NCBI GenBank assembly: GCA_965205025.1
Contig: CBDBFU010000015.1
Location: 32,001-96,000 of the forward strand
Origin: Candidatus Poribacteria bacterium
GTDB taxonomy: Bacteria; Poribacteria; WGA-4E; WGA-3G
Reading direction: 5' to 3'
DNA: 64,000 nucleotides
Position 1 is the stretch's first letter, and every line of letters starts with the position of its first letter. The translations under genes and the position numbers were made by a program. Below are positions 1,924-63,800 of the stretch, one piece after another. The notes beneath the pieces are model-generated. The model was not told the DNA's origin. It ran no database searches and saw nothing but the letters and a program-made list of their open reading frames with translations.

Positions 1924-6036
<4,113 letters not shown>

Positions 6037-12526: not shown

Positions 12527-12572
12527 GTCTTATTCCTCTCATAGGAACATCTAATTCAATATAATTAGCACC

Positions 12573-45400: not shown

Positions 45401-45627
45401 ATTTCAATTGCTTGGTTGATAGCTTCTCTTGGTGTGTTTGGATTAAGGCGTTGTAAAGCTTCTTTAAGTCTATCAGTTAGAACGACTTCAGACTTTGATT
45501 GTCTATTATTGATCTGATAATCTGATTGGAATTCGTTTATGCAATTTTGGGTATACCACCCTATATTCTCAAGGATTGAGATTGCGGGTTGTTCTATGAG
45601 TTGATCTTCACTATAGGGGTTTTGCAT
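42436..45627 (-). CDS. hsdR: Type I restriction endonuclease subunit R
   Basis: RPD...NGVPLILMEFK nuclease motif, HTQGSGKS, DEAHR, FTGTP, TGFDVP and QTIARANR. Confidence 0.96.
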   Translation of the reverse strand: MQNPYSEDQLIEQPAISILENIGWYTQNCINEFQSDYQINNRQSKSEVVLTDRLKEALQRLNPNTPREAINQAIEILTQSRAVMNSVEANREIYFLLKDGVKVKVTNPITQEEADIILQVIDWENPENNDYYTASQFSITGEMYTRRPDLICFVNGVPLILMEFKRIDENLYDAYNDNLRDYKDTIPHLFWYNAFIILSNGSEARIGTFTANWEHFAEWKRIEDEKENENQQVAIENILNAICEPKRLLDIIENFTLFMEVQGGTIKLISKNHQYLGVNNAINALNHIESNHGKLGVFWHTQGSGKSISMLFFAQKVLRKKSGRWTFVVVTDRQELDKQIYKTFASTSGVLTQQEVHAEDIQHLRQLLSEDHRYVFTLIHKFQTQDNTPHPILSDRSDIIVITDEAHRSQYDTLAMNMRTALPNAAFIAFTGTPLIAGEERTREVFGDYVSVYDFKQSVADGATVPLYYENRVPRLQLTNQDLNSDLEQILEDAELDENQEAKLEREFAREYHLITRDERLETVAEDIVSHFIGRGYRGKAMVISIDKATAVRMYDKVQKYWKQKIQSLKSDLNNNPSQDERKQLEALIQYMDDTDMAVVVSPSQNEIDDLRKRDADILPHRRRMNAEDLETKFKDPDDPFRIVFVCAMWITGFDVPSCSTIYLDKPQRNHTLMQTIARANRVYKEKIHGLIVDYIGIFRYLEKALAIYATGPNGDGANPIEDKSELINLLRDAVDEITQFCSLINIDLTIIQNADQMSKIQLIDDAVNKILINDETKRDYLQQARHINKLFKAILPDTEANEFSGICSLINIIAKRIKSLGGPVDISSIEDEVEDLLDRSIAPDGYIIDTESVSYNDQLIDLSQIDIDELLERFETQHKRTQAERLKGIIKQKLKEMIQLNKSRIDLQDKYEKMIEEYNSGAITDDQQLQKIYDFLVKLSQEDKRADSEELSEEELAIYDILTKPDIQMTLPQRQEVKSTVKKLIEELKYNSLVLDWRKHQQSRAQVELKIAEILESGLPDVYKPMIFHEKYEEIYQHIYESYYGEGRSIYTEIENVANLNA

Positions 45628-45645
45628 ACAGGTAGATTTTAAGAA

Positions 45646-45820
45646 TTATTGCTGTGAAATTCTATTTAAGAAGTTTGGTGGTTCAAGGATTTCAATTCCA
45701 AATTCAAACATTGCTTTCTTGAGTTCTGGATCGTCGAGTAGGTCATTATCAGTAGATACCAGGATCGAACAATTAGGTTGGTATCAAAGGCAACTCGTTA
45801 GGTACGTAATCGGATTTCAT
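45646..45820 (-). pseudogene. Internally deleted, frameshifted PIN-family toxin
   Basis: The ATG overlaps the upstream stop. N-terminal RVAFDTNLIVR is joined out of frame to C-terminal ILVSTDNDLLDD...GIEILEPPNFL*; the middle of the domain is missing. Confidence 0.7.
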
Positions 45821-46353
45821 TTTTGTTCACGTCTTACCTCTTCGAGTGCCTCCTCAAAGTCATGTATGACTTCATCTTCGGGTGTATCAGCAAATGCTTT
45901 ATTGAATCGAGCAGTAATATTGTCCCATTCCTTCTTTAACTGGTTTTGATTACTTTCAACACGAGCATGTATTTTAGATACAATTTCGTCCAGGTCTTCA
46001 TTTTCTGATGTAACATTTGAATGTTCTTGCGCGAAATATATTCTGTCAGCAAAATTATTTTGACTCACTACCTTTTTTATCTCATCCAACAGTTTTTGAT
46101 TTCTTGATTTTGGTTTTGCCGTATCAGTTACAAACACGATACAATCATCTTGTTTGAGGAAGTGCTGAATTGCTTGCTTTAGACTTTGGGGTGCTGGTGT
46201 TCCCATATTATGGCATTTATGGAATGCATTTCTTCCTGTAGTTTGAATTGCTAATTGACCTCGTTGAGTTGACTCTTGTAAACCATCTTTAAGATATTTA
46301 ACTGCGTTAGCATCTTGGTCAGATTCAAGGTTCCAGACTCTTATTCTAATCAT
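45817..46353 (-). CDS. Chimeric-looking protein: degenerate TOPRIM/DUF4276-like N-terminus plus antitoxin-like C-terminus
   Basis: IRVWNLESDQD and CIVFVTDTA, then KAFADTPEDEVIHDFEEALEEVRRE. Coupled to the upstream ATPase and the downstream PIN relic. Confidence 0.5.
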   Translation of the reverse strand: MIRIRVWNLESDQDANAVKYLKDGLQESTQRGQLAIQTTGRNAFHKCHNMGTPAPQSLKQAIQHFLKQDDCIVFVTDTAKPKSRNQKLLDEIKKVVSQNNFADRIYFAQEHSNVTSENEDLDEIVSKIHARVESNQNQLKKEWDNITARFNKAFADTPEDEVIHDFEEALEEVRREQK

Positions 46354-47564
46354 ACAGGTTCCTCCATTAGGTCTTGAAGTAATTGGCTATCGAAGATAGC
46401 ACTACCTATACCAAAGTCTGAAATCCATCCGTCAAGTCCTTCTCTATTATCACGAATATCTTCAAGATTGATGACTTCTGTTCCGAGACCTGGGCGATTT
46501 CTCAGGAGTAATACACCGAGTGAATCTGAGATATTGTCTGGATTAAAAGCGTCAAGTAGATGTGAACTATGTGTTGTGATAATGACTTGTGTTCGTTCTG
46601 ATAACTGCTTGAGTACATCTGCAATATTTTTCAAGGCACCAGGATGTAAACTTCGTTCAGGTTCTTCAATTGCAATGAGTGGTGGTAAATCAGGCAAATT
46701 GAGTAAAACGTAATATATCACGAGACGTATAGTTCCCTCAGATGCACTTAATAATGGAACTGGTCTCATATTCTTTTCTAATATACAAAATCTGTATTTT
46801 CCATTAATCTTGCAACGATCTATACGAAGTTTTAAACTGGATTCGAGAGATTCATTGACATTCCTGAATCGCTCAGGATCACTTTCAAACCAGCTTGAAA
46901 ACAACTCCGATATTGCTGTTCCAAAATCTCTGAGATTTGGTACGAAATCTAAATCTTCAAAATAATCAAGTTTAGGAATACCGTAGTTATCAATAGATAG
47001 TTTCATAGAATTTGGATGAAAATCATAAAACTTCCAATGCTTTATAAAGTTGGTTATTACACTTGTTATAGGATTGTTGCCAAATTCTGTAGATGCTAAT
47101 ACAGGTTTGTTTGAATTTAAGACAGTAGGATTAGTCCCAGATTCATCAAAAATAATTCCATTACCATTTACAACTTTTATTACTAAAGCATTATTAATCA
47201 ACAACCTTTCTATAATAACTGGATTATCAGATTTTATATCTAATACTAACTTGTAGTGAATAAGTCTATCTTCTACACTAAACATTAGTCTAAACTCACT
47301 ATAAGGTTTCTCTGGTTTTTCATCTATCTGATAAGTAAGCCTATTTATATCACCTAACCCAAAAAACCCTATTATGGATTTTATTTTTGATGGACTTCCT
47401 TTTTGCATCCAGTTAAAAAAGCGAAGTGTTTCTAAGCAATTTGATTTACCACTTGCATTGGGACCCACAAGAACTGTTAAAGGTTTGAGTGGAAGTGTGA
47501 CATTGCGCAAACTCAAGAAGTTTTTGATTTGTACTTTTTCTAAGATTGCTTCTTGCTCAGACAT
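46350..47564 (-). CDS. AAA_21/ABC-type ATPase of the defence-associated class
   Basis: IKNFLSL, VGPNASGKSN, ASEGT, IEEPERSLHP and QVIITTHS. Confidence 0.88.
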   Translation of the reverse strand: MSEQEAILEKVQIKNFLSLRNVTLPLKPLTVLVGPNASGKSNCLETLRFFNWMQKGSPSKIKSIIGFFGLGDINRLTYQIDEKPEKPYSEFRLMFSVEDRLIHYKLVLDIKSDNPVIIERLLINNALVIKVVNGNGIIFDESGTNPTVLNSNKPVLASTEFGNNPITSVITNFIKHWKFYDFHPNSMKLSIDNYGIPKLDYFEDLDFVPNLRDFGTAISELFSSWFESDPERFRNVNESLESSLKLRIDRCKINGKYRFCILEKNMRPVPLLSASEGTIRLVIYYVLLNLPDLPPLIAIEEPERSLHPGALKNIADVLKQLSERTQVIITTHSSHLLDAFNPDNISDSLGVLLLRNRPGLGTEVINLEDIRDNREGLDGWISDFGIGSAIFDSQLLQDLMEEPV

Positions 47565-48043
47565 GTTATATTCCTCAGTCCTATACCTTTAAAGACAATA
47601 GCGTTTTCTTTAATTGGTAATCAACAGAAAATGTATTGATTCTTGATAGCGTATGCCCTACTTGTCGTTATTATACAATCTGAAGTGCGGTATGTCAATT
47701 TGTTTCAGTTTACATGGGGTATGTAAGTTTTTGGCATGAATATCATACAACATTTGTGAATGGATACCAATACTTATCTAAACTCTTAATACTATACACG
47801 CTTAAAATTCTTACAAATATGGATATATATAATAATGTGGGATGTAAGGATAATGTGAATGGAAAAGTGTTAATATTTATTTTTCTGAGATGACTACACT
47901 TTCACGGAAACCTTCACGGAGCAATTCTACGAACCCTTATTCTATAAGGGTTTATAATTTTAATGACCCCATTCTCCGTGAATCACGCATGTTAAAATAC
48001 ATATAACTTAAGTGTAAACAAATAGATCTTTGGTTTTCAACTG

Positions 48044-48157
48044 ATACCATTTCTATAGATGTTTATCTCATGAATTGTTGTTAAGCATATCTTGAAATAC
48101 TGCACAAACTGGAAGTTTGTGCTACATTAAAGAGACTTTAATTATCGGAGATGGTAT
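48044..48157. mobile_element. MITE family A, diverged 114-bp copy
   Basis: ATACCATTTCTA-N9-ATCTC ... GCACAAACTGGAAGTTTGTGCTAC ... GAGAC-N9-CGGAGATGGTAT; the same length as 58387-58500. Confidence 0.8.
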
Positions 48158-48504
48158 AAGATGTATAAATAGAATATCATCTGGTGTTTTCATAGTGCAT
48201 ATTTGATATTGTTGAGTGTGAATATGCTTTTAAGGTAGTCTGGGACTGGGTTTATAGATGGTGTTATTGACTCATATATTTTCATAGTAACTATGAAAAT
48301 GTAATATACTTATTTCTTATTAAATTGTTGTAAAGTCAGTCCTACACAGGGTTTATAGGTTGTTTACGAGAGGGTTGGTGGAAGGAAGTAACTATGAAAA
48401 AATATGAAAGTTATATAACGAAATGTGAATGAATATATATTTATATGTTATATATCGTTTTTCTTTATGTTATTCCTAGTGTGTATAGAGAGTAGGTTTG
48501 GCTG

Positions 48505-49779
48505 TTATGATTCTGAAGATTCGTCTTGTAGTATTTGGGTATCAATATCAAGATTAGATACATCTATTTCTCCAGAGATGAGTTTTGGGAGGATTAGATC
48601 TCTGGCTTCCTGCAGATATTCATTCTTACTTGTTAGGTTCGCTATTTTTGAAGAAATTGGTTTTTCTAAATCCACATATCTATCAACAATAGCATAAGAC
48701 GGCTCCAAGAGTTTTATTTCTAATAGATCTGCCTTAGTTATTGCTTTAAAAATAGTACCACTACCCATGATATCTTCATTCTTAAATAGATGTTTTAGTT
48801 GCTGTAAGATGAATGACTGATTCCTATATTTACTTCTAATTGCTGAAATACCTCTACCAATCACAATCCTCTTATTTGCAATATTAATACGCCCAACAGG
48901 TGCACGTACACTAAAGAGTATATCACCATCTTCAGCAATTCTTTTCATTAACATACAATAGACTCTATCTACAGGAAAACGCGGACCAAAATTAGTAACA
49001 CCTTGATGAAATGGTAAACCTTCTCCAATATAATTATAATATTCAGATTTTGGAGACTGACCCATTATTACTTCGCACATATTCGCTAGATGTTTAACAT
49101 TCCATCCTTGTGGAATTGGACCTAATTCTGATTCTACCATAGGAATATTCTCATGTCCGGGGAAACGGAAATGGACGAACCATTCTCGGTAGAGTGTTTG
49201 TGCCATGTCTTCGAGTATTTTGATTCGGCGTGTGTTGTTTTCGATTAGGTCGTCGTAGGTGCTTAGGATTGCAGCGATTTTTCGTTGGGTTTGGAGGGGT
49301 GGAAGAGGAATTGGTAAATCCCGTAGATCCGGTTGACGTATTCCTAAGACTGTTGTACCTGTAGCCCGTAAATTCAACTCTTGTAAACAGATATGTGTGC
49401 TAAAGTAATAAAATAGAAATGATGGAATTATGTGTTTTGGATTTGCTCGGATACAGAATAGTCTTTGACTAAGACAGATTCTTCTGCTGTCAGGTATTAA
49501 ATAAGATTCACCTAAAGGTGCCTCGGATGTTAACAAAATGTCATTTTTTATTACTTCTGATTTCATCCACTTTTGGTACAAGTCTTCATCTACAAATTTA
49601 GCTTTTTCTAAATTTACCAATCTCCCATTTTTTATATTCATAGCAGATAGTGCGATAATTCCTGAATCTGACCATTCACCACCCAATTTTTTTGGGGTTT
49701 TTCCTCGGTAATCAATTATTTCTGTGATTAGATGGTCAAGTTTTTCTATTTTCCAATCAGTTGGTTTTGTGTTACCCAT
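48505..49779 (-). CDS. hsdS: Type I R-M specificity subunit
   Basis: Two TRDs separated by PLPPLQTQRKIAAILSTYDDLIENN...LYREWFV, and a C-terminal RDLILPKLISGE. Confidence 0.95.
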   Translation of the reverse strand: MGNTKPTDWKIEKLDHLITEIIDYRGKTPKKLGGEWSDSGIIALSAMNIKNGRLVNLEKAKFVDEDLYQKWMKSEVIKNDILLTSEAPLGESYLIPDSRRICLSQRLFCIRANPKHIIPSFLFYYFSTHICLQELNLRATGTTVLGIRQPDLRDLPIPLPPLQTQRKIAAILSTYDDLIENNTRRIKILEDMAQTLYREWFVHFRFPGHENIPMVESELGPIPQGWNVKHLANMCEVIMGQSPKSEYYNYIGEGLPFHQGVTNFGPRFPVDRVYCMLMKRIAEDGDILFSVRAPVGRINIANKRIVIGRGISAIRSKYRNQSFILQQLKHLFKNEDIMGSGTIFKAITKADLLEIKLLEPSYAIVDRYVDLEKPISSKIANLTSKNEYLQEARDLILPKLISGEIDVSNLDIDTQILQDESSES

Positions 49780-49849
49780 ATTGTTTCCTGATAAACTATA
49801 TGTAGGATTTTTAGTATTGATTCTTACACCTACACTTATTCTATATTAA

Positions 49850-50200
49850 CGACTTGTATCAGCTAACTAATTGTTTTTGTGTTTTTCACGGATTATATGT
49901 TTTGTGCTATAAACATTTCGTCCCTACGGGACTCATTTAGTTAATTGATCAGTTTTCTATAGACATTCCGTCCCTACCAAATCAAGGAATCAACGGTATG
50001 AATGCTATTTAGCATTCACCGGGTATGAATGCCATATGAAGATTAAAATAATAATTCGGTAATGTGTTAGAAATTCGAATCAACGGTATGAATGCTATTT
50101 AGCATTCCCCGTGGTTAGGAAACCGAACCTACCGAGTTTGGGAATATGGGAATTACCGAATTTAAAACTTAATCATCATTAGGCATTCCCCGGGACTCAT
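49850..50200. mobile_element. Inverted element D copy, interrupted by nested palindromes and element B
   Basis: Begins CGACTTGTATCAGCTAACT, a homolog of the D end. Repeat units lie at 49907-49933 and 49957-49977; the second resumes as GGGACTCA at about 50192. Confidence 0.75.
50036..50179. mobile_element. Element B (144 bp), second copy
   Basis: ATGAAGATTAA-N9-TCGGTAAT ... ATTACCGA-N9-TTAATCATCAT lies between GAATGCCAT and TAGGCATTC. Confidence 0.85.
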
Positions 50201-50481
50201 AATCTTTATATGATTGTTCCGGTTACACTTAAATCATAATGTAAGTGTATCAATTGAAAATGGTATTAGTAAGGTTTTTTTCGATTATTTCCTTGTATGA
50301 TGTGTTCCGAACTTAAAACCTATACAGTATAAATAATGTGTAGATAGATATTGTACATTAAGTAGGAATTCCATAAATAGAGACAGTTCCTTCATATCCA
50401 TTATTACTTTATCTCTTTGAGTTTATCATTCTGTGGCGAAAATAAAGGTTAATCGTTCTGCTACATTCAGATTTTAGCGTG

Positions 50482-50766
50482 CTAACGATTAGATCTCTTT
50501 AGCATTTTTTCATATTCGCTATGGGGACCGATCCAATTCCAAATAATCTTACCATCTTCTTCATATCCTAAAGCTCTGTAATCATTGGTAATTCGTATTG
50601 ACCAAAGATCAACAGAAACCTTTTTGAATTGAAGGGATGGATATAAAGGGTTTTCTTGTAAGACTTGGATTTGTTTCGCAGTACGTCTTTGTATATTTTG
50701 CGGAAGTTTTTGCACCAATCCCATAAAGTTCGGATTTCTGATATGCTCGAATTGTAAGTTATTCAT
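50482..50766 (-). CDS. RelE/ParE-like toxin
   Basis: KLPQNIQ...ENPLYPSLQFKKV...WSIRITNDYRALG...WNWIGPHSEY. Confidence 0.85.
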   Translation of the reverse strand: MNNLQFEHIRNPNFMGLVQKLPQNIQRRTAKQIQVLQENPLYPSLQFKKVSVDLWSIRITNDYRALGYEEDGKIIWNWIGPHSEYEKMLKRSNR

Positions 50767-50768
50767 AC

Positions 50769-51086
50769 CTACACAAACTTAGTACACCTACCAGCTTTGT
50801 AATCTTCGCGAGCCTTTTCAATAAGGTTATCAAGCCTACCTGCTTCCATATCTTCTTTGATCTGCTGATCCCACGCTTCTTCTTTGGCAATGAGGGTTTG
50901 CTCAATCATATCCGGCAATTTTTGTTGGACGGCTTCGGCAGTTTCCGCAGCGTATTCTATTTCGGGTAGTTCAGCGATTGTTCCCTCCCAACTCTTTCCG
51001 TTCTTTTGGATATATGCGGTATAGGTTTCATCGAACAGTTTATTATAGATATAATAAGTTATCATTCCTTCACCAGTAATGACCAT
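50769..51086 (-). CDS. Antitoxin with a HicB-like N-terminal fold
   Basis: YTAYIQKNGKSWEGTIAELP...ETAEAVQQKL (HicB-like) followed by AWDQQIKEDMEAGRLDNLIEKA; 2 bp upstream of the toxin. Confidence 0.7.
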   Translation of the reverse strand: MVITGEGMITYYIYNKLFDETYTAYIQKNGKSWEGTIAELPEIEYAAETAEAVQQKLPDMIEQTLIAKEEAWDQQIKEDMEAGRLDNLIEKAREDYKAGRCTKFV

Positions 51087-51256
51087 ATTATATATCTCCT
51101 TGATTGTAAAATAATTCTTTGGCTATAAGGGTGGTTTTTTGTTGTTAATGCGATAATTCAATGGTATAATGTTTGTCTTAAAATTATTTTTTAGTCGCTA
51201 CTCAAGCGCGTTTGGCACGGCTCATACCATCGTTAAAGTGTATTTTGCTGTATGTA

Positions 51257-51285
51257 ATACCATTTCTATTTGATTATATCTCATT
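51257..51285. repeat. Orphan left end of MITE family A
   Basis: ATACCATTTCTA-N9-ATCTCATT with no matching right end downstream. An orphan right end CAATTGAAAATGGTAT lies at about 50251-50265. Confidence 0.6.
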
Positions 51286-51360
51286 AATGATTGAGGAAAC
51301 TCCTAAATTCTCTTATCAGGGACTTTAAGATGAATTGCGTAAATCCTAAATATTATTACA

Positions 51361-52923
51361 TTATACGATATCTTCTAATATTATAGTAACATTTTCTGCA
51401 ATCTGTTCTTCGAGTTGGTGTGCTTCGGAGTTTAGGATTTCTAATTCTTCATTAAGTTCTTGGAATCTTTGTTGGAAATCGAAATCCTCTTCTTCTTGTG
51501 CGGCTACTCCGACATAACGTCCAGGATTAAGACTCCATCCTTGTGCTTCTATTTCATCTATCGTTGCAACTTTACATAGACCGGGAACATCTACATATTC
51601 ACCATTAGGGAAGTTGGTATCAAGGAGTTCAGTATTGTTATTTAGATTTTCAGGTGATTCCTCTCGGTATAACCTTGCTATATTACCCAGAAATTCTATA
51701 TGTAATGGTGTGAAGTCTCGATGTGCTTTTCTGACTTGTTGGTATATGTTTCGTGCATCAATGAATAAGACTCTATCTTGTCTGTCTGTCTTCTGTTTTG
51801 GTTTATCAAAAAACCAGAGGGTGCATGGAAGTGTGACGGTATAGAAGAAGTTTGAAGATATACTTATCATTACATCTACTACACCAGACTGTATGATCTG
51901 TTTTCTGATTTCTAATTCCGATGCGCGTGCATCTGCAGCGGAGTTTGCCATGACAAAGCCTGCGCGTCCATTTTTGTTTAGGGAACTCAGGAACAGTTGT
52001 ATCCAGATATAATTTGCATTATCCACTCTTGGCATACCGTAAGGAAATCGTGGGTCGTCTTTTATACGTTCCATGTCAACTCTGTCAACATTAAAAGGTG
52101 GATTCGCCATGACATAGTGGAATTTATTTAATGCCTTATGTGGATCTTCATAGTAGCTGCTGGCTTGCCTAATATCTCCTTCTTGACCGTGTACAGCAAG
52201 GTTCATTTTACAGAGTTTAATCGTTTCGGCAACGCGTTCCACACCATATATACTGATCTGTCCTTGGTTTCCGTTTTGATTGTGATTTCGAATGAAGTCT
52301 TCACTTTGTACGAACATACCTCCTGATCCGCATGCTGGATCGAGAATACGACCATGAAACGGTTGAAGAATTTCAACTATGAGTTTTACGAGTGAGGTAG
52401 GTGTAAAGAATTCACCACCGCGTTGTCCTTCGCTCATTGCAAAGTTGCCTAAGAAGTATTCATAGACTTTTCCGAAAGCGTCTCCTTCAATCTGCGGAAT
52501 TTGTTCCATGATTCGTAATAATTCAATAAGTGTGCTTTTTTCGAGTCGGTTGTATGTTTTGGGTAGGACTCCTTCTAACTGTTGGTTTTCAGCTTCAATT
52601 GCTTTCATGGCATCCGTAACTGCCTGTGCAATGTTTTCACTTTCGGGTAGATTCAGGAGATGTTCGAATCTGGCATTTTCAGGTAGGTAGAATGCGCCGC
52701 GCGCTTGGAATAATGTTCTTTCATTTATCTGTAGTATTCTACTACCAGAGGATTCCGAAGTGATTTCTTCTCTGACTTGATGAAATTTATGGTCTGCGTA
52801 TTTAAGGAAGATAAGACCAAGGACAGGAGTTGAATATTCAGACGATCTAAGGTTTGAATTTGCCCTAAGTTCATCTGCAGTATCCCATAATCTCTGTTCA
52901 ATTTCGGAAAGGTTTGTATTCAT
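51361..52923 (-). CDS. hsdM: Type I R-M methyltransferase subunit (m6A)
   Basis: [28 protein letters not shown] and LNPGRY. Start placed at MNTNLSE (52923), avoiding overlap with lptD. Confidence 0.96.
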
Positions 52924-52933
52924 ATTATTTCCT

Positions 52934-55900
52934 TTAGAAGAAAGAGCGACCGAGTGAATTACCTGCACCAAATGAATTATATGGCACACCAGCGGGTAAT
53001 GTGTGGAGACCCCAAGTTTCGGTGGTAGCATCATATCCAACACCCATGGATACTGCGGGTTCTCCAATTAGGTTGACTTGGAATGTGAAGTCCTGACGAA
53101 CTGTGTCATAAGGGGGTTCACGTTTTATTCCGACACGGCTCCATGAGATTCGTAAGTTCCAATCGTGTAAATTACGGTTCATACTTATCCGCTGTGAGTA
53201 AAACTGTCTTTCAATTGGATAATAGATAAGATTGAAATCAAACTCCAGATTTGGGTTCACACGATATCGACCGTTTGCAGTCATAGAACGTGATGCCCGT
53301 AACGATGTGTGTCTTTTACTGAAAGAATTACCAAAACTAACGTACCATTTCTTTCTTGTGTAGCGAATGTTCGTTCGGATTCCAACCATTTTGAATTGTT
53401 TTCCATCTACAGGATGTGGATTTGGGTCATGTGTCATTCGAACAGTCATATTTAGATTACGACTTGGAAGCGGTACAATTGTGAAGTCACTGTCAATCGG
53501 TTCATATTTTCGTCTATATAAAGATTCAAATTCTGTGAAGTCTGCTGTAAGCCGGGTATCAAAATAAAAGATACGATGAGCAGATTCGCTCCTACGTGTT
53601 TTTATTTCAATATTCGTATTGAAATTATAAGTTAGTCTTTTACGTTCATAGAAGAAAGTACTGGGTCCAAAAGGATAGAGTATGCTTTCCTCATCGATTG
53701 CAGGTTGGTAATCGAAAGTGAGTGTTGATTGTAATTCATGTCGTAGTTTTCTTACACCTGGAATATAGTTGGTCTTGTATATACGAAATAGTGTATTCGT
53801 TGCTTGGGATCTGATACTATAAACCCCACGTATAATATTTCTATTCTTTTCTTGATCTTTATCGTGCCATATCATGTTTGTATTCAGTGTGGAACTGAAT
53901 TTAAGTTCCCGTAAAGGAGTAATTAATAAGGTTGATTGTTTACGCAGATCAAAACCTAAATCTAAGGTTTGTAGAAAAACGTCATTTTCTTCACCAAATT
54001 TACCACGATACTGTTGTCGATAGAAGTTCCCGAACTGAATGTCCATGTCAAAGCTTGTGTCTTCAAGAGTAGGAAATGCAAGTAATGATAGTATTGGTTT
54101 ATCACTTTTCAGTTTATCAGAAACGGAAACTAATCGGTCATTAACGTATTCGAAAACAGGTAATCTGTTGAATCGCATTCGTGAGAAATTCAGTGTGAAT
54201 TGCGGTAGTTTCTGTAGGGCGGTTGTACCTTCACCGGAGAAATCCTGTACATGTCGCACCTCAAGTCTTGACGTAATATCCCCGATTGTTTCTTCTGAAT
54301 ATGTGAGATTACCGTTTTTATCAATATCTCTGTCACTTGCTGTGGACAAAGCGGATCCGTATGTAAGGATACCAAAGGATCTGAGAGTAGATTCGTTGGG
54401 TAGTTGGAAGTTTTCTTTATACGAGAGAGCGCGCCAATCAGCTCTTCCAATAAAACTAATGGGTCGTCGTCCGTCTTTACGGCTATCCCAAGGGGTAAAG
54501 AAAGATTGTCTATGTCCCCATCGCATATTCCAACGTCTTCCAATTCTTGTAGCATCTTGTCTACTAAATGAGTATTCGTCAGCCCCGTAGAAATATATAT
54601 CTCCAATATAGCTGCGTTTCTTATCCACTTTAATGAGACGAAACGACTTTTTTGTTTTTATAACGCGGCTATATTCACCTGCATATAGACTTTGTGCTTC
54701 AGAAGCGACTTGTCTTGGATCCTCCCATTTACCCCTATATCCATGTTTCCTATATACTTCAATCTTTTCTTCTTCTTCACCTTCTTCAGTATTTTCTCCA
54801 ACTTTTAAGACTTCTTGTTCATGTTCGTCCATGTCATGAGTCGGTCCATCTTCAACTTGTTCATTTTGTGTATTCTCATCATCCTCACTTGTTATAGTGT
54901 CTGGTGAAATATCAGGTGTCAATTCAGTTTCATCTGTAATTTCTGTGTCGATTGATTCTTCAGGTGCTTTGTCCTTATCCTCTATCATTTTAGGATCTTT
55001 TTCCTCAGTTTTTCGTTCCTCATCTGTTGTTGCCAATACTTCTGCTTGGAAAGTTTCCCAGTTAGCTTCGAACTCTTCGGCTAATTCTTCAAAAGTTGGA
55101 GTTGCCTCCTTTTTTATTAGTTGAAAAATGTAATTTCCTTCATCAGAGAACACAGGACGATCTTCCGTAATATCTCCGGGGTTTTCCATTCGTCTAATAG
55201 AGTATTGCCATGACTGTTCCATTTCATTCAGTGGCATACCTTCCCCATCATTTATTTCTGACAAAACTGCTTCAGGATATTCTGCAGCAAGTTCTTCAAA
55301 GGATTCTCCAGCGATTGCCCTTTCATGAATTTTCTCACCTAAATCTCTGATGCTTTGTTGTGTTTCACTACTTGCTTCAATTGATATATCAATTCTATAG
55401 AGTTTAATTTCCCGTTCACCATAAACATCAAGGATCCGTCCGACTTTCAGGATATGAAAGGCGGATTCAGTTCTCAAGAGATTACTAACTTCTCCTTCGT
55501 TGAGAGAAAAAGCTGCTTCTTCTAATACGGGGTCAAGTAAAGGAGTTCCATCTTCGTCAGTTTCACCTCGTGCAAGGAATCCCATATCCCCACCATCGTA
55601 ACGGGTATCAGTATGATCTGATTCTCTTTGTGCAATAGCTTGGAAGTCTCCATCTTCTTCATTCAACTGGTCAATGATTTTTTCCGCTTCTTCTTTTGCT
55701 CGATTAGCATCTTCTTCAGTAATTGTATATTCTAAAAAGATTTGTTTTAACCAATATCTATCGTAATCCCCTTCAAGTCGATCATATATTTCATTTGCCT
55801 TCTCTTCTAACTTTGTTCGTTGTGCTGGCGTGGCGTCAGGTGGTAAAGGAATATGTATCTCTCTGAATTGTGTATCTCGAAATCTGTATTTTCCTTCAAA

Positions 55901-56857
55901 ACCATATCCTTGTCCTCTCCTTGCGCTCCTGTCGTAAATAAGTGCTGCATCATACCGTTGTTTTCTTGCCAACGGCAATACAATACCGATATTTGGTCCT
56001 TGGTAACTATCGGTTCCGACTCTAACGATGATTTTGGCTATTTTGCCTTTTCTTAGGTCGCGTCGAATTGCGGGAAAATAGAAGAGTGGTATACCACCGA
56101 TCCGTAGAACGATATTCTTTGCGATCATTTCTTGGTTCATACGGATAATGACTTCTGATACGCTAAAATGGTAGTGTGGATGTTTTAGTGAACAGGTTGT
56201 TAGACTGCCACCTTTTATATAAGATTTTTTGTCCTCAATTTTGAAGATTTCGCTCCCACCGAAATACCAAGGATCACTAAAAGTGTAGCCGTTTCGTGCA
56301 ATTCCCTTTTTCGTTTCAAGGTTAAAAACAAGCTCATCCGAGTATGTTTCCTCTTCACCGACTTTCAGATAAACATTCCCTGATGCACGCATAAGATTAT
56401 CATTAAAATCTGCCCACACATGATCTGCCCGTAGAATCACATTATCATGTTTTATGAGTGCATTTCCATGGATTTGAACGAGGTTATCCTGCAAGATTAC
56501 TTCGTCCCCATCTCCGATGACAGTATCCGCATCTGGTGTCATCGTCTCTGGATCCAATGCTTTTATAGGAGCAATATCAGCTGAATCAGTATCTTGCTCT
56601 TCTTCAGTGTCGGTCTTGGTATCGGATTCAGGTACGGTAGGTGGTGAATCTTGAGCAGCGATTGGATTGAATGTAGAAAAAACAGAAAGAATTAGAATAG
56701 AGAGAAAAAGGGATGTTAATATAACTCGTTTTTTTGAGTATTTCTTATTCCCAGAATCTATATTTTTTTCTGAATGATGTAAAGAAAGTAGGATAGTGGA
56801 CTTTCTTTTATTTTCTTTTTTCTTTTTCTTATAATTTTGCACAGATTTATGAATCAA
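52934..56857 (-). CDS. lptD: LptD-like LPS assembly protein with inserted parvulin (PPIase/SurA-like) domains
   Basis: OstA jellyroll (LRADHV...ASGNV), TTC...PHY and [10 protein letters not shown], barrel strands ([39 protein letters not shown]), and a parvulin insert ([11 protein letters not shown]...GGDMGF...[11 protein letters not shown]...FHILKV). Confidence 0.8.
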
Positions 56858-58188
56858 TTGGATTCTGGTATACTTTTGTCAGTTGTTAATGTTGGAACTG
56901 CATCAGGTTTAATTTTAATATATGCATTTTCGAGCAATGAATCTGTATATGCAGTCCATTCTTTTTCGAATAGTTGTTGGCGTAATATTCCAACAATTTG
57001 TTGTTTTTCTTCAGCAGTTAACTCAGGAGTGATTCGATCATCTACTTGATAAATATGTATACCTTGTTCAGTTTCAAGTGGATTACTATACTTTCCCGTA
57101 TCAAGTTTTGAGATAACATCGCGTACTTTTGGAGTCAATTCGGTGAGAATTATAACTCCTAATTCCCCACCCTTGGTTTTAGTCTCTTCATCATCAGAAT
57201 GCTGTGTGGCGAGCGTATTAAATTCTTCACCATTTTGTAATTTTTTTATAATTTCAACAGACTTTTCACGTGCATCTTTCAGTGCAGATTCACTGATGGG
57301 AAAAGGTATTATCATAGAACGAAATGAAAATTTCTCTTCAGTCCGAGATTCGACTATGAAAATATGTAGACCATCATTGGATTCGACCGGTTCGCTAATT
57401 TGCCCCTGTTCAAGTTTAGAAAGGGTAGTGAGGAATAGATTAGAAAACTTAAGCAATTCTGCAGGAGATGTTTCAATTAGATTTCCAGCTTTTTCGTTAG
57501 AAGTTATACGTTGTGCGATTTTTTCAAACTGTGATTTATCTGCATTGATTTCTTCTAATGCTGTATTTGCTATATCATAAGCAGCTTTCTTATCTTCTTC
57601 TGTTGGTTTAAATGCGATAAAGATATGTCTCAAATGTATTCTTTCTGCTTTTGTTGGTAGTTGCTCCTGGTTTTCTCTAACAAATTTCTGTACATCACTA
57701 TCCCGTACCTGTAATCTTGGAATTATCCGTCCCATCACGAGTTTTTCAGTCATTAGATTACGTTGTATTTGTTCACGAAATGATTCAAAGGTAAGTCCAT
57801 CTCGGTTTAATAACTTCGTGAATTCTTCATCTGTTGGAATATTATATTTATCTTTAAAATCTTGTATCTGTTTTTCAATATCTGAATCAGAAACTTGTAT
57901 TTTAAGAGTTAATGCTGCTTCTAACAAGAGCATTTGACGTATCAATCTATCCAATAATTCACTTCGTTGTTTCTCGGCTTCTTTTTGTGCTTCAATTTCA
58001 CTGAAACGGTATACCTGTTGAAGTTCAAAGGCCCGTTGATTTACTAATACGTCGAGTCGTCTTTGTGTAATGATATCATCATTTACAAAGGCGATAATTC
58101 TATCTATGACACGTGCTGCACCGTATGAAGTGATATTGATTAGTAAAAGAATTAATAGTATAGTATAAATGAATGTCTTTGGTTTCAT
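56854..58188 (-). CDS. surA: SurA-like periplasmic chaperone/PPIase
   Basis: DRIIAFVNDDIIT SurA N-domain, LRHIFI, and two parvulin domains (FNTLATQHSDD...GGELG). Confidence 0.85.
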   Translation of the reverse strand: MKPKTFIYTILLILLLINITSYGAARVIDRIIAFVNDDIITQRRLDVLVNQRAFELQQVYRFSEIEAQKEAEKQRSELLDRLIRQMLLLEAALTLKIQVSDSDIEKQIQDFKDKYNIPTDEEFTKLLNRDGLTFESFREQIQRNLMTEKLVMGRIIPRLQVRDSDVQKFVRENQEQLPTKAERIHLRHIFIAFKPTEEDKKAAYDIANTALEEINADKSQFEKIAQRITSNEKAGNLIETSPAELLKFSNLFLTTLSKLEQGQISEPVESNDGLHIFIVESRTEEKFSFRSMIIPFPISESALKDAREKSVEIIKKLQNGEEFNTLATQHSDDEETKTKGGELGVIILTELTPKVRDVISKLDTGKYSNPLETEQGIHIYQVDDRITPELTAEEKQQIVGILRQQLFEKEWTAYTDSLLENAYIKIKPDAVPTLTTDKSIPESN

Positions 58189-58386
58189 GATCTATCTCCA
58201 GAATTTGATAGTTATTAGATCCTATTTGTTAGATATATTACTGGTTTATTGTTGTTTTGAATCGAAGAAAAATGACCAATATAATTCCTGATTTTTTCTT
58301 AATATCCAAACCATCAAGAGACCTATATGGTGACAGGTGTTATGGCAAATTTGATAAAATGTTTGTTTTTCTGAAAAATAATTGTA

Positions 58387-58500
58387 ATACCATTTCTATA
58401 GATTATTGTCTCATTAGGTGCTTATTATGGTAGTCATTTTCTGGTCACAAACTGAAAGTTTGTGGTACAAAAAAGAGACATTCTCAATTAGAAATGGTAT
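58387..58500. mobile_element. MITE family A, intact 114-bp copy (IS630-type ends)
   Basis: Perfect TIRs ATACCATTTCTA / TAGAAATGGTAT (TA at each boundary), subterminal GTCTC/GAGAC after N9, and an internal hairpin CACAAACTGAAAGTTTGTG. Confidence 0.88.
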
Positions 58501-58674
58501 AACATTCATTTTGCTTTCTTCTTCAAGAGATATAGATCTCATTCCTAAATATAGATTTTTTAATTTCTGATCTGTCGTTATAGGTTTGTTGCTATAAGTA
58601 TTATTTTCTTCAATTTTTATTCAAAATTGTTGAAGAGTCGTACTTTTTGAATTGACACTATACGATTAATAATG

Positions 58675-58707
58675 AAGACGGGTAGATATAATTATCCTAC
58701 CCGTCTT
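58675..58707. terminator. Hairpin downstream of the ppiC-like gene (possible terminator)
   Basis: AAGACGGGTAG-N11-CTACCCGTCTT forms a perfect 11-bp stem; no clear U-tract. Confidence 0.45.
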
Positions 58708-58724
58708 GCAAATCAAATGAAGAA

Positions 58725-59711
58725 TTATTCTTCAGGAGTTGTTTCTTCTGGATTTCCTTCTTCAGGTGTAGTTTCTTCAACTTCTTCAGGGGTTTCGTCT
58801 TCTGGTATCCGGTCGATGAAGGTTTTTACTTCAGCCTGCTCTCTGAGAAGTTCAATCCATTTTTTCATTAATTCCTCACGTTGTTCACGTTCAACCTTTC
58901 TGATAACATCTTTTCGGACATCTTCTTCACTGAATGGTCTTTGAAAAGCGTCTCTGGCATCATCTTTGCGAAACATCATGTAGAATTTCTGTCCTTGTAC
59001 TTCGACTTCAATTACAGATGAGTGGATTTCTCCAATTTTGGCATTGAAAGCAGCATCCATAAACGGTTCAGTCCCTGTAGGATATGAGTTTCTACCGATG
59101 TAGTCGGTATCTCCAGGAGCAGCAGGATTTGCACCTGGTCCAACCAATTCCCCTCTATCAGAGAGTTCTTGTGCAGAGACTGCAATGTCTTTTCCTGCTT
59201 TTATTTCTGCGAAAACTTCATCAGCCCGTTCTTTATCCTGAAGTGTTATACAAAGGAGTTTTACCTGTTCGGGACGAACATAATTTTCCTTATTAACATC
59301 ATAATACGCTTGATAGAGTTCCTCAGATAAACTGATTTTTTGATCAACTTCCTGTTCAGTTAATCTTTCAATCATTAATTCATGAAGATAGTCTTTAACT
59401 TTCTTCAGAATTTCTGGATCTTCGTTAAGGTTCTGATCTTTTGCCAGACAGAGGATAAGACGACTTTCAGCCATAAGGGTCATGTATTCATATAGACCTT
59501 CTTTATCTTGGTATTGACGTTGTTTATATTCAGGTAGTTCACTGATTTCCTGCATCATTTCTTCAAGAGTGATTCTTTGCTTTCCATCCCATTCAAATTC
59601 AGCGATCACAGTTCCATCAGCACCGATAGCCTTATCACCACAACTATAGAAAAACGGATGAAGTGCCAGAATGGTGAGTAATAAAATTGAAATGTTACTA
59701 TATTTTTTCAT
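58725..59711 (-). CDS. PpiC/PrsA-type foldase lipoprotein
   Basis: Lipobox-like YSCG, helical N-domain, degenerate parvulin domain (YVRPEQVKL...DAAFNAKIGEI) and an acidic tail. Confidence 0.75.
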   Translation of the reverse strand: MKKYSNISILLLTILALHPFFYSCGDKAIGADGTVIAEFEWDGKQRITLEEMMQEISELPEYKQRQYQDKEGLYEYMTLMAESRLILCLAKDQNLNEDPEILKKVKDYLHELMIERLTEQEVDQKISLSEELYQAYYDVNKENYVRPEQVKLLCITLQDKERADEVFAEIKAGKDIAVSAQELSDRGELVGPGANPAAPGDTDYIGRNSYPTGTEPFMDAAFNAKIGEIHSSVIEVEVQGQKFYMMFRKDDARDAFQRPFSEEDVRKDVIRKVEREQREELMKKWIELLREQAEVKTFIDRIPEDETPEEVEETTPEEGNPEETTPEE

Positions 59712-59736
59712 GAATTTCCTCCTTTACAGTGTAAAT

Positions 59737-60714
59737 CTATTCATCAGATGGATTGTCTTGTTGTTCAGCTTCTTCTGGTTCTGGTTCAGGTGGTAATGGT
59801 ATGTTTTCTGGATAGGTTTTCAGTTTTGCTGCAGAAGACATTTCCTCAATCCATTCAAATATTCGTGCCCGTTTCTTTTCTCTGAGAACTTTCCGTTCAA
59901 TATCAGACTTAACTTCATCAAACTCTTTCTGCCGATCAGGTTGATGTTCTTCTTTTCGGAAAATGAGATAATATGTCTTATCATCCACATCAGTTTCAAA
60001 AACTGCCTCAGTCATTTCACCGATTTCCTGTTCAAAGGCTGCTTCTATGAATTCTGACCAATTTGGTGAAGCGCTCTTGGTAAAGAAGTTTGTGTTTCCT
60101 GGATCGTCAGCATTTTTCCCTGGACCATTAGCAAACTTGTTGTCGTCAGCAAGTGCTTTTGCCATTTCAACAATATCCTTTCCTGCTTTAATCTGATCCA
60201 AAGTTTCATGTGCTAAATCTTCATCGTCAAGCGTGATACAAGTAGCCCTTACTCTTGCTTCTTCAATGTAATCACCCTTATGTACATCATAATACTCCAG
60301 AAGATCTTCGTCACTAAATTGTACTTTGTCATCAACTTCGATTTCAGTAAGTTTTTCAACCATAAGTTGATGTGTATAGTCATCCATTTTATTTAAGAAA
60401 TCTTCAAGTTGATCAAAGCCTAAATCGGTTGCTTGCAGAAGTTTGAGTTTTTCATCAATATAGTCTTCTAAGAATTCTATTTTGCCTTCTTTGGTAGAGT
60501 AATTTTGCTGTCGATAGACAGGTAATTCAGCAATAGCCACTTCTAATTCGCTAAGTGAGATCTGTTGTAATTCTCCTTTCCACTTAAACTCAGCGATGAT
60601 AATCTGACTCTTGTCAATCTGTTGTTCTTCAGTATCATGATTATCTGATCTAACGAGTGTCCAAGTGAGAAAGCATGTTACCAATAAAGTTACAAGAATA
60701 ACGATTTTTTTCAC
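59737..60714 (-). CDS. PpiC/PrsA-type foldase, paralog of the adjacent gene
   Basis: Signal anchor and shared IAEFxWxG...ELPxYxQ segment, EAAFEQEIGEM and KEFDEVKSDIE. Confidence 0.75.
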   Translation of the reverse strand: MKKIVILVTLLVTCFLTWTLVRSDNHDTEEQQIDKSQIIIAEFKWKGELQQISLSELEVAIAELPVYRQQNYSTKEGKIEFLEDYIDEKLKLLQATDLGFDQLEDFLNKMDDYTHQLMVEKLTEIEVDDKVQFSDEDLLEYYDVHKGDYIEEARVRATCITLDDEDLAHETLDQIKAGKDIVEMAKALADDNKFANGPGKNADDPGNTNFFTKSASPNWSEFIEAAFEQEIGEMTEAVFETDVDDKTYYLIFRKEEHQPDRQKEFDEVKSDIERKVLREKKRARIFEWIEEMSSAAKLKTYPENIPLPPEPEPEEAEQQDNPSDE

Positions 60715-60820
60715 TTTAATGTTCTCCTTTTATAATATGAGACTTATCTTGTTTATAGTAGATTCAATAAATATGTTTACAGGTCATGGTAATTTTAGGT
60801 TTTACTATAATGTAATAGAC

Positions 60821-63800
60821 TTATTCATTCTTTTCAAGAAACATTGTTAATACGCGTTGCAGTTCTTTTAATAGTGCCCTACCGTTTAAATTCTCAATTG
60901 AAATCATGAGTTGTGCAGGTGGTCTTAGTTGTAAAATTGAATTATTGTGTATAATTTCCACAAACTTAGTTGGGTCAACTTTAGGATTTTTATCATCAAA
61001 TGTGACCTTAATTTGTTTATTTCCAGCGACAATAGCGGTAATTCCGAGTTTATGACAGTATTGTTTAATACCTGAGATTTCAAGTAGCATTAAAGCCGGT
61101 TCAGGTATTTCACCATATCGATCTTGTAGTTCTTCTATGAGTTTCTGTTTTTCCGATTCGTTTTTTATTGCAGATATTTTTTTATAGATAGATATTTTTT
61201 GTCTACTTTCAGGTATATACTCATCAGGTATGAATGCTTCAATGGGTAAATTTATACTTGTCTCAATGTCTTCCTCAACCTTTTCGCCTTTAAGAGTCTT
61301 TACAGCTTCATCAAGTAGCTTACAGTATAGTTCATAGCCTACTTTAGTAATATGTCCATGTTGTTGTGCACCAAGTATATTACCTGCCCCTCGAATTTCT
61401 AAATCTCTAAGTGCAATTTTGAAGCCGGATCCAAGATCAGTGAATTCTTCTATGACTCTGAGTCGTTTTTGCGCCCCTTCTGTGATAGGTTTGTCAGGAG
61501 GGAAAAACAGATATCCATAAGCCTGTTCATCGGCGCGTCCCACTCTTCCTCGTAGTTGATAAAGTTGTGCTAACCCAAAAGCATCAGCGCGATTAATCAT
61601 GATGGTATTTACATTTGGTATATCTAATCCGGACTCAATAATCATAGTACACACCAGAATATCGTGTTTATGACGAATAAATTCTAACATGACGTTTTCC
61701 AATTCGCGTTCTGGCATCTGTCCGTGTGCAACAGCAATTCGAGCGTTAGGAATAAGATCTTGTATTTTCTCAGCAAAAGATCTTATATCCTTTACTCGAT
61801 TGTGAACAAAAAAGACTTGTCCATCACGAGCTAACTCAGTAGTTATTGCATCTCTAATAACTTTAGTATTATATGGCAACACATGAGTTTGAATTGGTAA
61901 TCTATTCGCTGGTGGTGTATTTATAATACTAAAATCTCTAATTCCAACAAGAGACATATGTAATGTACGCGGAATAGGTGTGGCTGTCAATGTTAAAACA
62001 TCAACAGTTTCCTTATACTGTTTGATTTTTTCTTTATGTTTTACACCAAAACGATGCTCTTCATCTACAATTAGCAATCCAAGATTATCGAATGAAACTG
62101 TATCTGAGAGTAAACTATGTGTACCTATGACAATATCAACAGAACCATCCTCAAGTTTTGATTTTACAGATTGTATCTCTTTTCTGCTACGGAAACGATT
62201 TAACATCTCAACTTGTATTGGAAATGAACTAAAACGTTTCTCAAAAGTATCATAATGTTGTAAAGCTAAAATAGTGGTTGGACAGAGAAGTGCAACCTGT
62301 TTTTCTGACATGACAGCCTTAAATGCTGCTCTTAATGCGACTTCAGTCTTACCGTACCCCACATCTCCGCAGATTAGTCTATCCATAGGACCTATTGCTT
62401 CCATATCAGCTTTGACATCTTCAATAGCTTGAAGTTGGTCGTCTGTTTCTTGAAATGGAAAGAGTGCTTCAAATTCCCCTTCCCATGGCACCTCTGTGGG
62501 AAAACTAAAGCCTTTTTTTGCTTGTCGAATAGCGTATAATTTTAGGAGTTCACCAGCCATCTCTTCAATTGCTGCTTTCGCTCGTCCTTTTTTACTTTCC
62601 CATGCTTTACCACCAAGATGATCTAATACTGGTTTATAGGACTCATCTTTATTACTTACATATTTCTGTACCAAATCCACTTGATATGAGGGGACATATA
62701 GTTTATCATCACCTTTGTATTTTAATATGAGAAAGTCCTGTTCTTGTCCATCAATATCCATTCTACGGATACCTTCATACAAAGCAATCCCGTGAGATAC
62801 ATGAACAACAAAATCCCCCGGTTTCATATCAATTAGACTTAATAAAGGTGCTCCACTTGTATGTCGTTTTGATGTAGTGACTTTGCGTTGTCGACTACCA
62901 AAAATTTCATTTTCAGATATAATTACGAACTTTAGGGATTCACTCAGAAAACCTTCAGAGATAAACCCAACACTAACCATAATTCCTTCAGGTGGTATGT
63001 CTCTTTCAATTAGCATTTCATATACACGTTTTGCTTGCTGGGGTGTTTCACAGAAGACGTTAACTAAAAACTTCTTATTAGTCCACTTTCTGATCTGCTC
63101 AAAAACCATTTGGTAGTTTCCTCTACCAAGTCCAAGTGGTTTCAAGTCGAATTGTAATTCCTCAGTTTCATTAGTAATTTCTTCATTTGAAGTGTTTGTT
63201 GATGTATCTTCAATAGTATTAGATGCTAAAGATAGAGAAATCTTCACAAATTTGTTTATATTCTCATGGATTGTATCATACGAAATGACCAAATTGTCTA
63301 CATTAGCCATTACTTTACCTTCATCAACCCTTCTCTTATATATCTCTTCGAGTTGTTCATGCATTTGATTAACTTCACGAATTTGCCACCTGGGTTCAAT
63401 CATGACGACAATCAAATCATCTGACATGTAATCTGTCAGCATTTCTGTATCGGAGTATAGTAACGGTAAAAAGGCTTCAATTCCATCAATATCTAATGGT
63501 GTACCATCAATTTCAGATAGAGTATTTGATTCAGTCTTATTTGAAAATGTCTGGATAGATTGTGTCATACACCGAATAGAATCGATATACTCAGGTTTAT
63601 TTGAGACCTCCTTCATCATCCATTCAGTCTTGGCTTTCCAATTTGATATAGATATGTCCCCTGGACAGATTTCAGACATAGGTGTAATTACAACTGAAGT
63701 ATCTTGATCTGTCGATACTTGTGATGTTGGATCAAACAATCGAATTTCGTCTATTTCATCTCCAAAAATGTCCAAACGAACCGGTGAATCTGAAGTAAGT

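Follow-up and report, generated by a model that had tools for sequence, protein, structure and literature searches.

The lptD gene described here lies on the minus strand of a 64,000-nucleotide stretch of DNA from Candidatus Poribacteria bacterium (assembly GCA_965205025.1, contig CBDBFU010000015.1, positions 32,001 to 96,000), which is referred to as the window and numbered from its first letter. Its product is identified as an LptD, the translocon for lipopolysaccharide (LPS), by a predicted periplasmic jellyroll and a predicted 26-strand barrel that match LptD in profile as well as in fold. As modelled, the hairpin between barrel strands 4 and 5 is very probably extended into the periplasm and bears a module of three parvulin domains. 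In these models the insert consists of two contiguous parvulins, A and B, nested in a third, split parvulin, together with an acidic tract.

Results

Identification of the protein as LptD

A profile of 91 relatives (alignment A1) matched LptD from Neisseria gonorrhoeae (7omm_A, E 3.6e-16) and several more LptD entries when it was compared with the PDB. The match to 7omm_A extends over the jellyroll and the first strands of the barrel as far as chain residue 306 and resumes weakly at residue 323, directly past the insert. An AlphaFold2 (AF2) model of residues 108-1307, calculated with A1, has 26 strands, a predicted local distance difference test value (pLDDT) of 78.5 and a predicted template modelling score of 0.61. 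When this model was compared with the PDB by Foldseek, LptD chains made up 27 of the 27 rows listed down to rank 33, with 4q35_A as the best (E 2.7e-19); for 7omm_A the template modelling score, normalised to target length, was 0.66. The second model, that of the 44% identical relative P0124, was calculated with a different alignment (A3) and likewise has 26 strands, including the same long strands 4 and 5 (pLDDT 80.4); all of its 14 best listed Foldseek rows are LptD. Sequence identity in the fold alignments to LptD structures amounts to 8-10%. The jellyroll and the barrel of about 26 strands, which had been put forward in a first-pass annotation made from the sequence alone, are thus borne out by structure prediction, profile comparison and Foldseek.

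The relationship is also apparent without the remainder of the protein. Searched against 1.84 billion representatives, the barrel alone (residues 745-1307) retrieved only 33 proteins at E ≤0.001, and canonical proteins of the LptD_2, LptD and LptD_N families are recovered by this search with E values from 2e-9 to 8e-4 (phmmer). Sixteen proteins were scanned against Pfam, 14 of them matches from the barrel search. Six of these 14 carry Rotamase at the same place and eight are canonical LptD_2 proteins, which also match LptD (7/8) and LptD_N (6/8). Two orthologues, P0033 and P0112, lie above the Pfam LptD_2 cut-off with 23.7 and 26.1 bits, respectively, against 22.5 bits. On the whole protein the Pfam family OstA_2 gave a weak match (E 0.044), and the NCBIfam family CT351_fam, a chlamydial barrel family, matched residues 127-335 below its cut-off (E 2e-6). 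In the protein atlas the protein's own clusters are called 'PpiC domain-containing protein' (0.99), with LptD families appearing as leads (0.81-0.82). The following features were assigned to the gene:

52934..56857, minus strand: lptD open reading frame (ORF) with the nested parvulin insert, 1307 aa/codons
56654..56857, minus strand: Lys-rich leader and predicted signal peptide, residues 1-68 (read from the sequence, no signal-peptide program)
56057..56518, minus strand: N-terminal beta-jellyroll (LptD_N/OstA-type, periplasmic), residues 114-267 (profile versus 7omm_A; AF2 strands in model 7-160)
55880..56029, minus strand: barrel strands 1-4, residues 277-326 (AF2 DSSP E170-176, E180-191, E195-204, E208-230)
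55757..55879, minus strand: outer parvulin, N piece with strand FREIHI and helix alpha1, residues 327-367 (hhalign; AF2 helix 344-362)
55424..55756, minus strand: parvulin A, residues 368-478 (Pfam Rotamase; PrsA 2jzv match)
55103..55423, minus strand: parvulin B (degenerate), residues 479-585 (Pfam Rotamase; hhalign)
55034..55102, minus strand: outer parvulin, helix alpha2 (TFEELAEEF...), residues 586-608 (AF2 helix 589-609)
54758..55033, minus strand: acidic, probably disordered tract in a loop of the outer parvulin, residues 609-700 (pLDDT <50 at 612-697)
54617..54757, minus strand: outer parvulin, C piece with last strand SFRLIKV, residues 701-747 (hhalign; AF2 E631-655)
53051..54616, minus strand: barrel strands 5-26, residues 748-1269 (AF2 DSSP; Foldseek; phmmer)
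54086-54160, minus strand: helix in the strand 10/11 turn, residues 900-924 (AF2 DSSP)
52937..53050, minus strand: C-terminal tail past strand 26, residues 1270-1307, ending in ...GRSFF

The exact start codon of lptD is uncertain. The TTG of the ORF overlaps the stop codon of the upstream surA gene by 2 nt, a GTG five codons further downstream is the start in the 1302-aa database entry P0002, and there is no ATG upstream of the signal-peptide-like stretch, the h-region of which, 19 residues long as read from the sequence, is followed by AAQ|D. The G+C content stays at ~36-40% across lptD without change (base composition scan). Every motif named in the first-pass annotation is present where it had been placed: the 14-residue early barrel strand (residues 313-326, nt 55921-55880), FREIHI (residues 331-336), ANEIYDRL (354-361), TFEELAEEF (588-596), the 25-residue stretch at residues 720-744, the 10-residue resumed barrel strand (residues 748-757, nt 54616-54587), LHDW (residues 1230-1233, nt 53159-53170) and, in TTC, Cys222 as the sole Cys of the protein (nt 56192-56194). 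Two ORFs lying wholly within lptD in other frames, 54039-54590 on the plus strand (183 aa) and 54190-54606 on the minus strand (138 aa), are most likely spurious.

The insert is predicted to lie in a periplasmic turn

The insert comprises 421 aa (residues 327-747) between barrel strands 4 and 5, with 22 strands following it. The insertion of about 420 residues noticed at first pass is therefore real, as the same site is occupied by only 7-9 residues in eight of eight canonical LptD_2 proteins aligned in A1. In the AF2 model strand 4 runs unbroken into FREIHI, the first strand of the outer parvulin, so that a single strand of 23 residues (315-337) results, just as in the model of P0124. At the other end of the insert SFRLIKV continues straight into barrel strand 5 (25-residue strand 738-762).

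Both AF2 models place the motif LH(D/C)W in the 24/25 turn, a strand count in agreement with known LptD. According to PMC8983717, it is in this turn that known LptD proteins have a conserved Cys pair, which is bonded to the N-terminal jellyroll. Because that bond reaches a periplasmic domain, the 24/25 turn should itself be periplasmic, and since the 4/5 turn has the same parity, the insert is placed in a periplasmic turn as well. The first-pass annotation had positioned it there, and strand count and parity agree on this location in the two models. A complex prediction for the jellyroll (A1 1-165) and the insert (A1 220-641), run without controls, returned a score of 0.00 and a mark of 0.32; it gives no verdict and is used neither way.

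Three parvulins, one of them split

Pfam Rotamase (PF00639, cut-off 21.7 bits) matches the whole protein with an E value of 5.7e-27. Parvulin A is the best preserved of the three domains (64.8 bits, E 1.5e-17), and its best single-sequence match in the PDB is PrsA (2jzv, E 1e-7). Parvulin B scores 25.4 bits (E 2.8e-5) and aligns with A at a probability of 95 in hhalign. With the A1 profile, A and B together give one continuous alignment to P1-P2 of SurA (1m5y residues 168-363, E 3e-15); they also align to the SurA encoded next to lptD (E 6e-6), with an identity of 21% between insert and SurA.

The outer parvulin is harder to see in either of its pieces. Its C piece, taken as residues 586-747, scores 15.7 bits and stays below the Rotamase cut-off. 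The orthologous piece of P0124 reaches 45.5 bits, matches only positions 35-97 of the hidden Markov model and reads as a parvulin that lacks its first third. No Pfam Rotamase match was obtained with the 44-aa N piece alone, a piece too short for it; in hhalign this piece pairs, in register, with the opening strand and helix of A (E 9.5e-4) and of B (E 2e-4), and the terminal part of the C piece aligns with that of A (E 2e-6, probability 89). Parvulins are built from a strand, three helices, a strand, a helix and two strands, in that order. All three domains show this order of elements when the AF2 models are evaluated with DSSP, and the model of P0124 contains a complete outer domain in this order with pLDDT values of ~88-94. 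Pfam, hhalign and two AF2 models thus agree with the first-pass proposal that three parvulins are present, the outer one split around the other two.

Two histidines form the active-site signature of parvulins. The corresponding positions are Q372/H468 in A, R488/I577 in B and E333/R740 in the outer domain, meaning that one of six is kept (H468), and these states represent the majority across the family in the respective alignment columns.

The acidic tract contains 38 Asp/Glu and 8 Lys/Arg in 92 residues and is predicted to be disordered. Its length ranges from 57 to 178 aa in the 75 core rows of the alignment and is 7 aa in P0124, P0127 and P0130. Among the core rows its mean pairwise identity is 0.18, with values of 0.78-0.80 for the outer parvulin pieces, 0.66-0.68 for A plus B and 0.78 for the barrel; these sequence comparisons indicate that the insert is kept under selection. 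The most conserved region is the C-terminal tail (mean identity 0.88 in the core rows), at the end of which model confidence is low.

A single cysteine in the core clade

Cys222 aligns with the jellyroll Cys of solved LptD proteins (NTC of 7omm), and 87 of 89 non-gap rows have Cys at this position. The column of its disulfide partner contains Asp in 78, Cys in 10 and Asn in one of 89 non-gap rows. Cys occupies the partner position in eight of eight canonical LptD_2 proteins and in P0130, and Asp does so in the protein studied here. With one single Cys and an Asp at the partner site an intramolecular disulfide is impossible, exactly as the first-pass annotation had stated. Exactly one Cys from residue 108 onward is present in 74 of the 75 core rows, and the core clade can be taken, on its sequences, to possess a disulfide-free LptD. 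In the P0130 clade the insert is present and both Cys are kept; by this comparison the insert appears to be older than the loss of the disulfide. The lone Cys222 is retained although its usual partner is mostly Asp, and it could be bonded to another protein or be buried.

Distribution and gene neighbourhood

Relatives were sought in one genome per species, which gave 143 genomes, and the best 80 of the 143 were examined. The architecture is present in all 80, complete chromosomes included; 76 are labelled Poribacteria and four 'uncultured bacterium'. Misassembly, which the first-pass annotation had itself raised as a possible objection, is excluded by this recurrence. A database search at the protein level yielded 371 matches. 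The best 120 of these all have 1229-1382 aa and Rotamase domains, 16 of them carry a precomputed LptD_2 tag, and the few with a name at the source belong to Candidatus Poribacteria and are called 'peptidylprolyl isomerase' or 'hypothetical protein'. 'Parvulin-like peptidyl-prolyl isomerase' also occurs as a source name. With such names only, surveys based on protein names would score Poribacteria as lacking LptD.

Divergent clades, which bear the labels Poribacteria, 'bacterium' and (one partial case) Gottesmanbacteria, have the insert at the same site down to 31-36% identity (P0127, P0130). In one of them P0130 and P0144 each contain four Rotamase stretches (Pfam). The fourth parvulin is located in the strand 10/11 turn (A2 columns ~1130-1250), where the 1307-aa protein has a helix only, and is permuted, that is, the GGDLGW...YHIIK part comes first and the normally opening strand and helix follow.

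The genes around lptD are:

56854..58188, minus strand: surA, 444 aa, SurA_N and two Rotamase domains, immediately upstream of lptD and overlapping its start
58725..60714, minus strand: two periplasmic proteins of the PpiC/Rotamase_2 type, 328 and 325 aa, between mfd and surA
42436-45627, minus strand: hsdR
46350-47564, minus strand: AAA ATPase gene
48505-49779, minus strand: hsdS
51361-53067, minus strand: hsdM

The order mfd-ppiC-ppiC-surA-lptD is found in 75 of the 80 loci. In the remaining five, most of which comprise little upstream sequence, lptD is accompanied by surA and hsdM at most. A recent duplication or fusion of the adjacent surA into lptD was considered as the origin of the insert and is rejected in view of the low identity of insert and SurA (21%). 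A scan of positions 52500-61200 for promoters and terminators gave counts at the level of shuffled sequence, and a literature search on LPS genes in Poribacteria yielded nothing usable.

Directly downstream of lptD a type I restriction-modification cluster occupies positions 42436-53067 on the minus strand. An hsdM homologue follows lptD in 39 of the 80 related loci, in several cases only as a fragment. The hsdM ORF listed for the window overlaps lptD by 134 nt. Its homology mostly sets in at residues ~41-49, and the real start is therefore probably the Met at about nt 52923. Inside the restriction cluster (50482-51086, minus strand) a 94-aa protein with a ParE-like toxin domain (Pfam E 1.7e-9) is encoded together with a preceding 105-aa protein without family; the two are probably a toxin-antitoxin pair. 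Elsewhere in the window (3100-6036, 20668-21549, 11003-13976, 28757-30784, 39375-40730) there are genes for WD40-repeat proteins, two sulfatases, a sulfatase-modifying-enzyme/BNR fusion and a DDE transposase.

Discussion

How could an LptD make use of parvulins mounted on its own barrel? E. coli LptD is among the clients that depend most on SurA, and it needs disulfide rearrangement. The dependence of LptD on disulfides is also dealt with in PMC8983717. The explanation that we consider best as a whole, with the chances for and against it about evenly balanced, is that the Poribacteria protein is an LptD with a mounted parvulin module that aids its own assembly. As to the nature of this aid, we tentatively infer a non-catalytic, peptide-binding holdase or assembly aid that acts on LptD itself. 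As a soluble periplasmic unit, the module would fold between the N-terminal part of the protein, consisting of the jellyroll and strands 1-4, and the 22 C-terminal strands. It would then keep the very large, slow-folding barrel soluble, help to present it to the β-barrel assembly machinery (BAM), or do both. In the core clade assembly would proceed without the disulfide steps that proteobacterial LptD needs.

Several observations weigh against this explanation, some of them touching the identification itself. There is no Pfam LptD or LptD_2 match on the 1307-aa protein, and among the 36 ORFs of at least 150 aa in the window no lpt, lpx or LptE family match was found, smaller ORFs and the rest of the genome not having been searched. 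Only H468 is left of the six signature histidines. This casts doubt on prolyl isomerase activity and points to modules for binding or structure more than to enzymes, and the three domains may have no more than a structural role. SurA has its chaperone activity mainly in the core formed by its N- and C-terminal parts. No SurA_N core domain was found in the insert; at E up to 0.1 Pfam reports only Rotamase families and a weak OstA_2 match on the whole protein. Furthermore, genes for a soluble SurA and two PpiC-type proteins adjoin lptD, which weakens the need for a built-in chaperone. In the light of the missing N-terminal core domain, the single retained histidine and these neighbours, the 'SurA-like tethered chaperone' of the first-pass annotation is overstated. 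The connection between insert and disulfide loss that it had implied does not hold as an ordering either: that the insert arose as a replacement for the disulfide is rejected, since the P0130 clade has both.

A purely structural role, though unlikely in our estimate, would accommodate part of the evidence. The module would then be a rigid periplasmic strut by the jellyroll, fixing its orientation or its distance to the LptA bridge or the cell wall, and would have no chaperone function. The strands of 23 and 25 residues that continue the barrel into the sheet of the outer parvulin form a rigid mount, the conservation of the outer parvulin pieces (0.78-0.80) equals that of the barrel, only one of the six signature histidines is retained, and the core clade is devoid of the disulfide linking jellyroll and barrel in known LptD proteins. 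On the other hand, the P0130 clade has the insert together with the Cys pair, and a strut would need less than three domains and a disordered tract of 57-178 aa.

The tandem A-B resembles P1-P2 of SurA, surA and two ppiC-type genes form one conserved cluster with lptD, and the fourth parvulin that a related clade has in another periplasmic turn gives the impression that domain number is of importance. These features would also suit a chaperone or docking platform that is anchored in the outer membrane and, near the site of LPS insertion, retains other outer-membrane proteins on their arrival or provides a docking site for SurA or BAM. We regard such a platform as rather improbable, as the insert has no SurA core domain in Pfam and gene neighbourhood alone is weak evidence.

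It has also to be considered whether the module acts in place of the lipoprotein LptE as plug, as template or in the handling of LPS, perhaps jointly with the conserved C-terminal tail. The folds of parvulins and LptE are unrelated. LptE is located within the barrel but the insert on a periplasmic hairpin, and this substitution appears distinctly improbable to us. It draws on the lack of an LptE among the window ORFs of at least 150 aa, but LptE is short and hard to detect, and the genome beyond the window and the related loci was not searched for it. It also draws on the tail being the most conserved region (0.88); in N. gonorrhoeae LptD, according to PMC8983717, the stretch past strand 26 enters the lumen and touches the groove of the jellyroll. 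The suspicion that assembly or gene calling produced a chimeric join of lptD and a surA-like gene, prompted only by surA next door and with no support found, can be dismissed as practically negligible: it is refuted by a single ORF in 80 of 80 listed loci, by the 1229-1382 aa of the 120 listed proteins, by the 21% identity to SurA and by a continuous reading frame with barrel strands on both sides of the insert.

A more far-reaching explanation would be a self-sufficient LPS translocon of Poribacteria, in which the parvulin trio (four domains in one clade) does in cis the jobs of SurA, of Dsb/LptM and perhaps of LptE. We consider it improbable. If true, the largest outer-membrane barrel would need no disulfides, and possibly no lipoprotein plug either, to fold and to hold its jellyroll.

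The protein shares the jellyroll, the 26-strand barrel, the jellyroll Cys, LH-x-W in the 24/25 turn, the tail past strand 26 and an aromatic last residue with the LptD proteins of the proteobacteria E. coli, Shigella, Klebsiella and Neisseria (4q35, 5iv9, 7omm); in E. coli, surA adjoins lptD as well. It differs from them in that their short 4/5 turn is replaced by the 421-aa insert with three parvulins and in that the interdomain disulfide present there cannot form with one Cys. The closest insert-free barrels by sequence are LptD_2 (PF19838) proteins (P0143, P0146-P0150, P0152, P0154), which align across the insert site. These eight proteins are 20-24% identical to the Poribacteria protein, have 7-9 residues at the insert site and possess both Cys. 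The labels of the relatives of P0143 are Eisenbacteria, Gemmatimonadaceae and Thermoanaerobaculia and do not include Poribacteria.

SurA (E. coli 1m5y and the SurA of the window) is likewise periplasmic and has tandem parvulins, P1-P2, like A-B. It contains the SurA_N core, whereas the LptD insert has none, encloses the tandem in a third parvulin and is covalently mounted on the barrel. Parvulins spliced into a host fold are also known from the foldases PrsA and PpiD, and PpiD-YfgM (8zht) appears in the Foldseek lists. Those are soluble or inner-membrane-anchored, whereas the pair in LptD is nested in another parvulin and the module as a whole resides in an outer-membrane barrel. The first-pass annotation considered the architecture undescribed, and in agreement with this no published description of an LptD-parvulin fusion was found in a full-text search that did not cover subscription journals.

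LptD is essential in model Gram-negative bacteria and notoriously hard to fold. According to PMC8983717 it is a drug target, and its interdomain disulfide is called essential there. This disulfide belongs to the features of proteobacterial LptD and does not define the fold. A natural, phylum-conserved LptD that carries chaperone-type domains in its barrel and has dropped the disulfide is a ready-made experiment on the roles of folding helpers, in which assembly can be measured after the insert has been relocated, removed or grafted.

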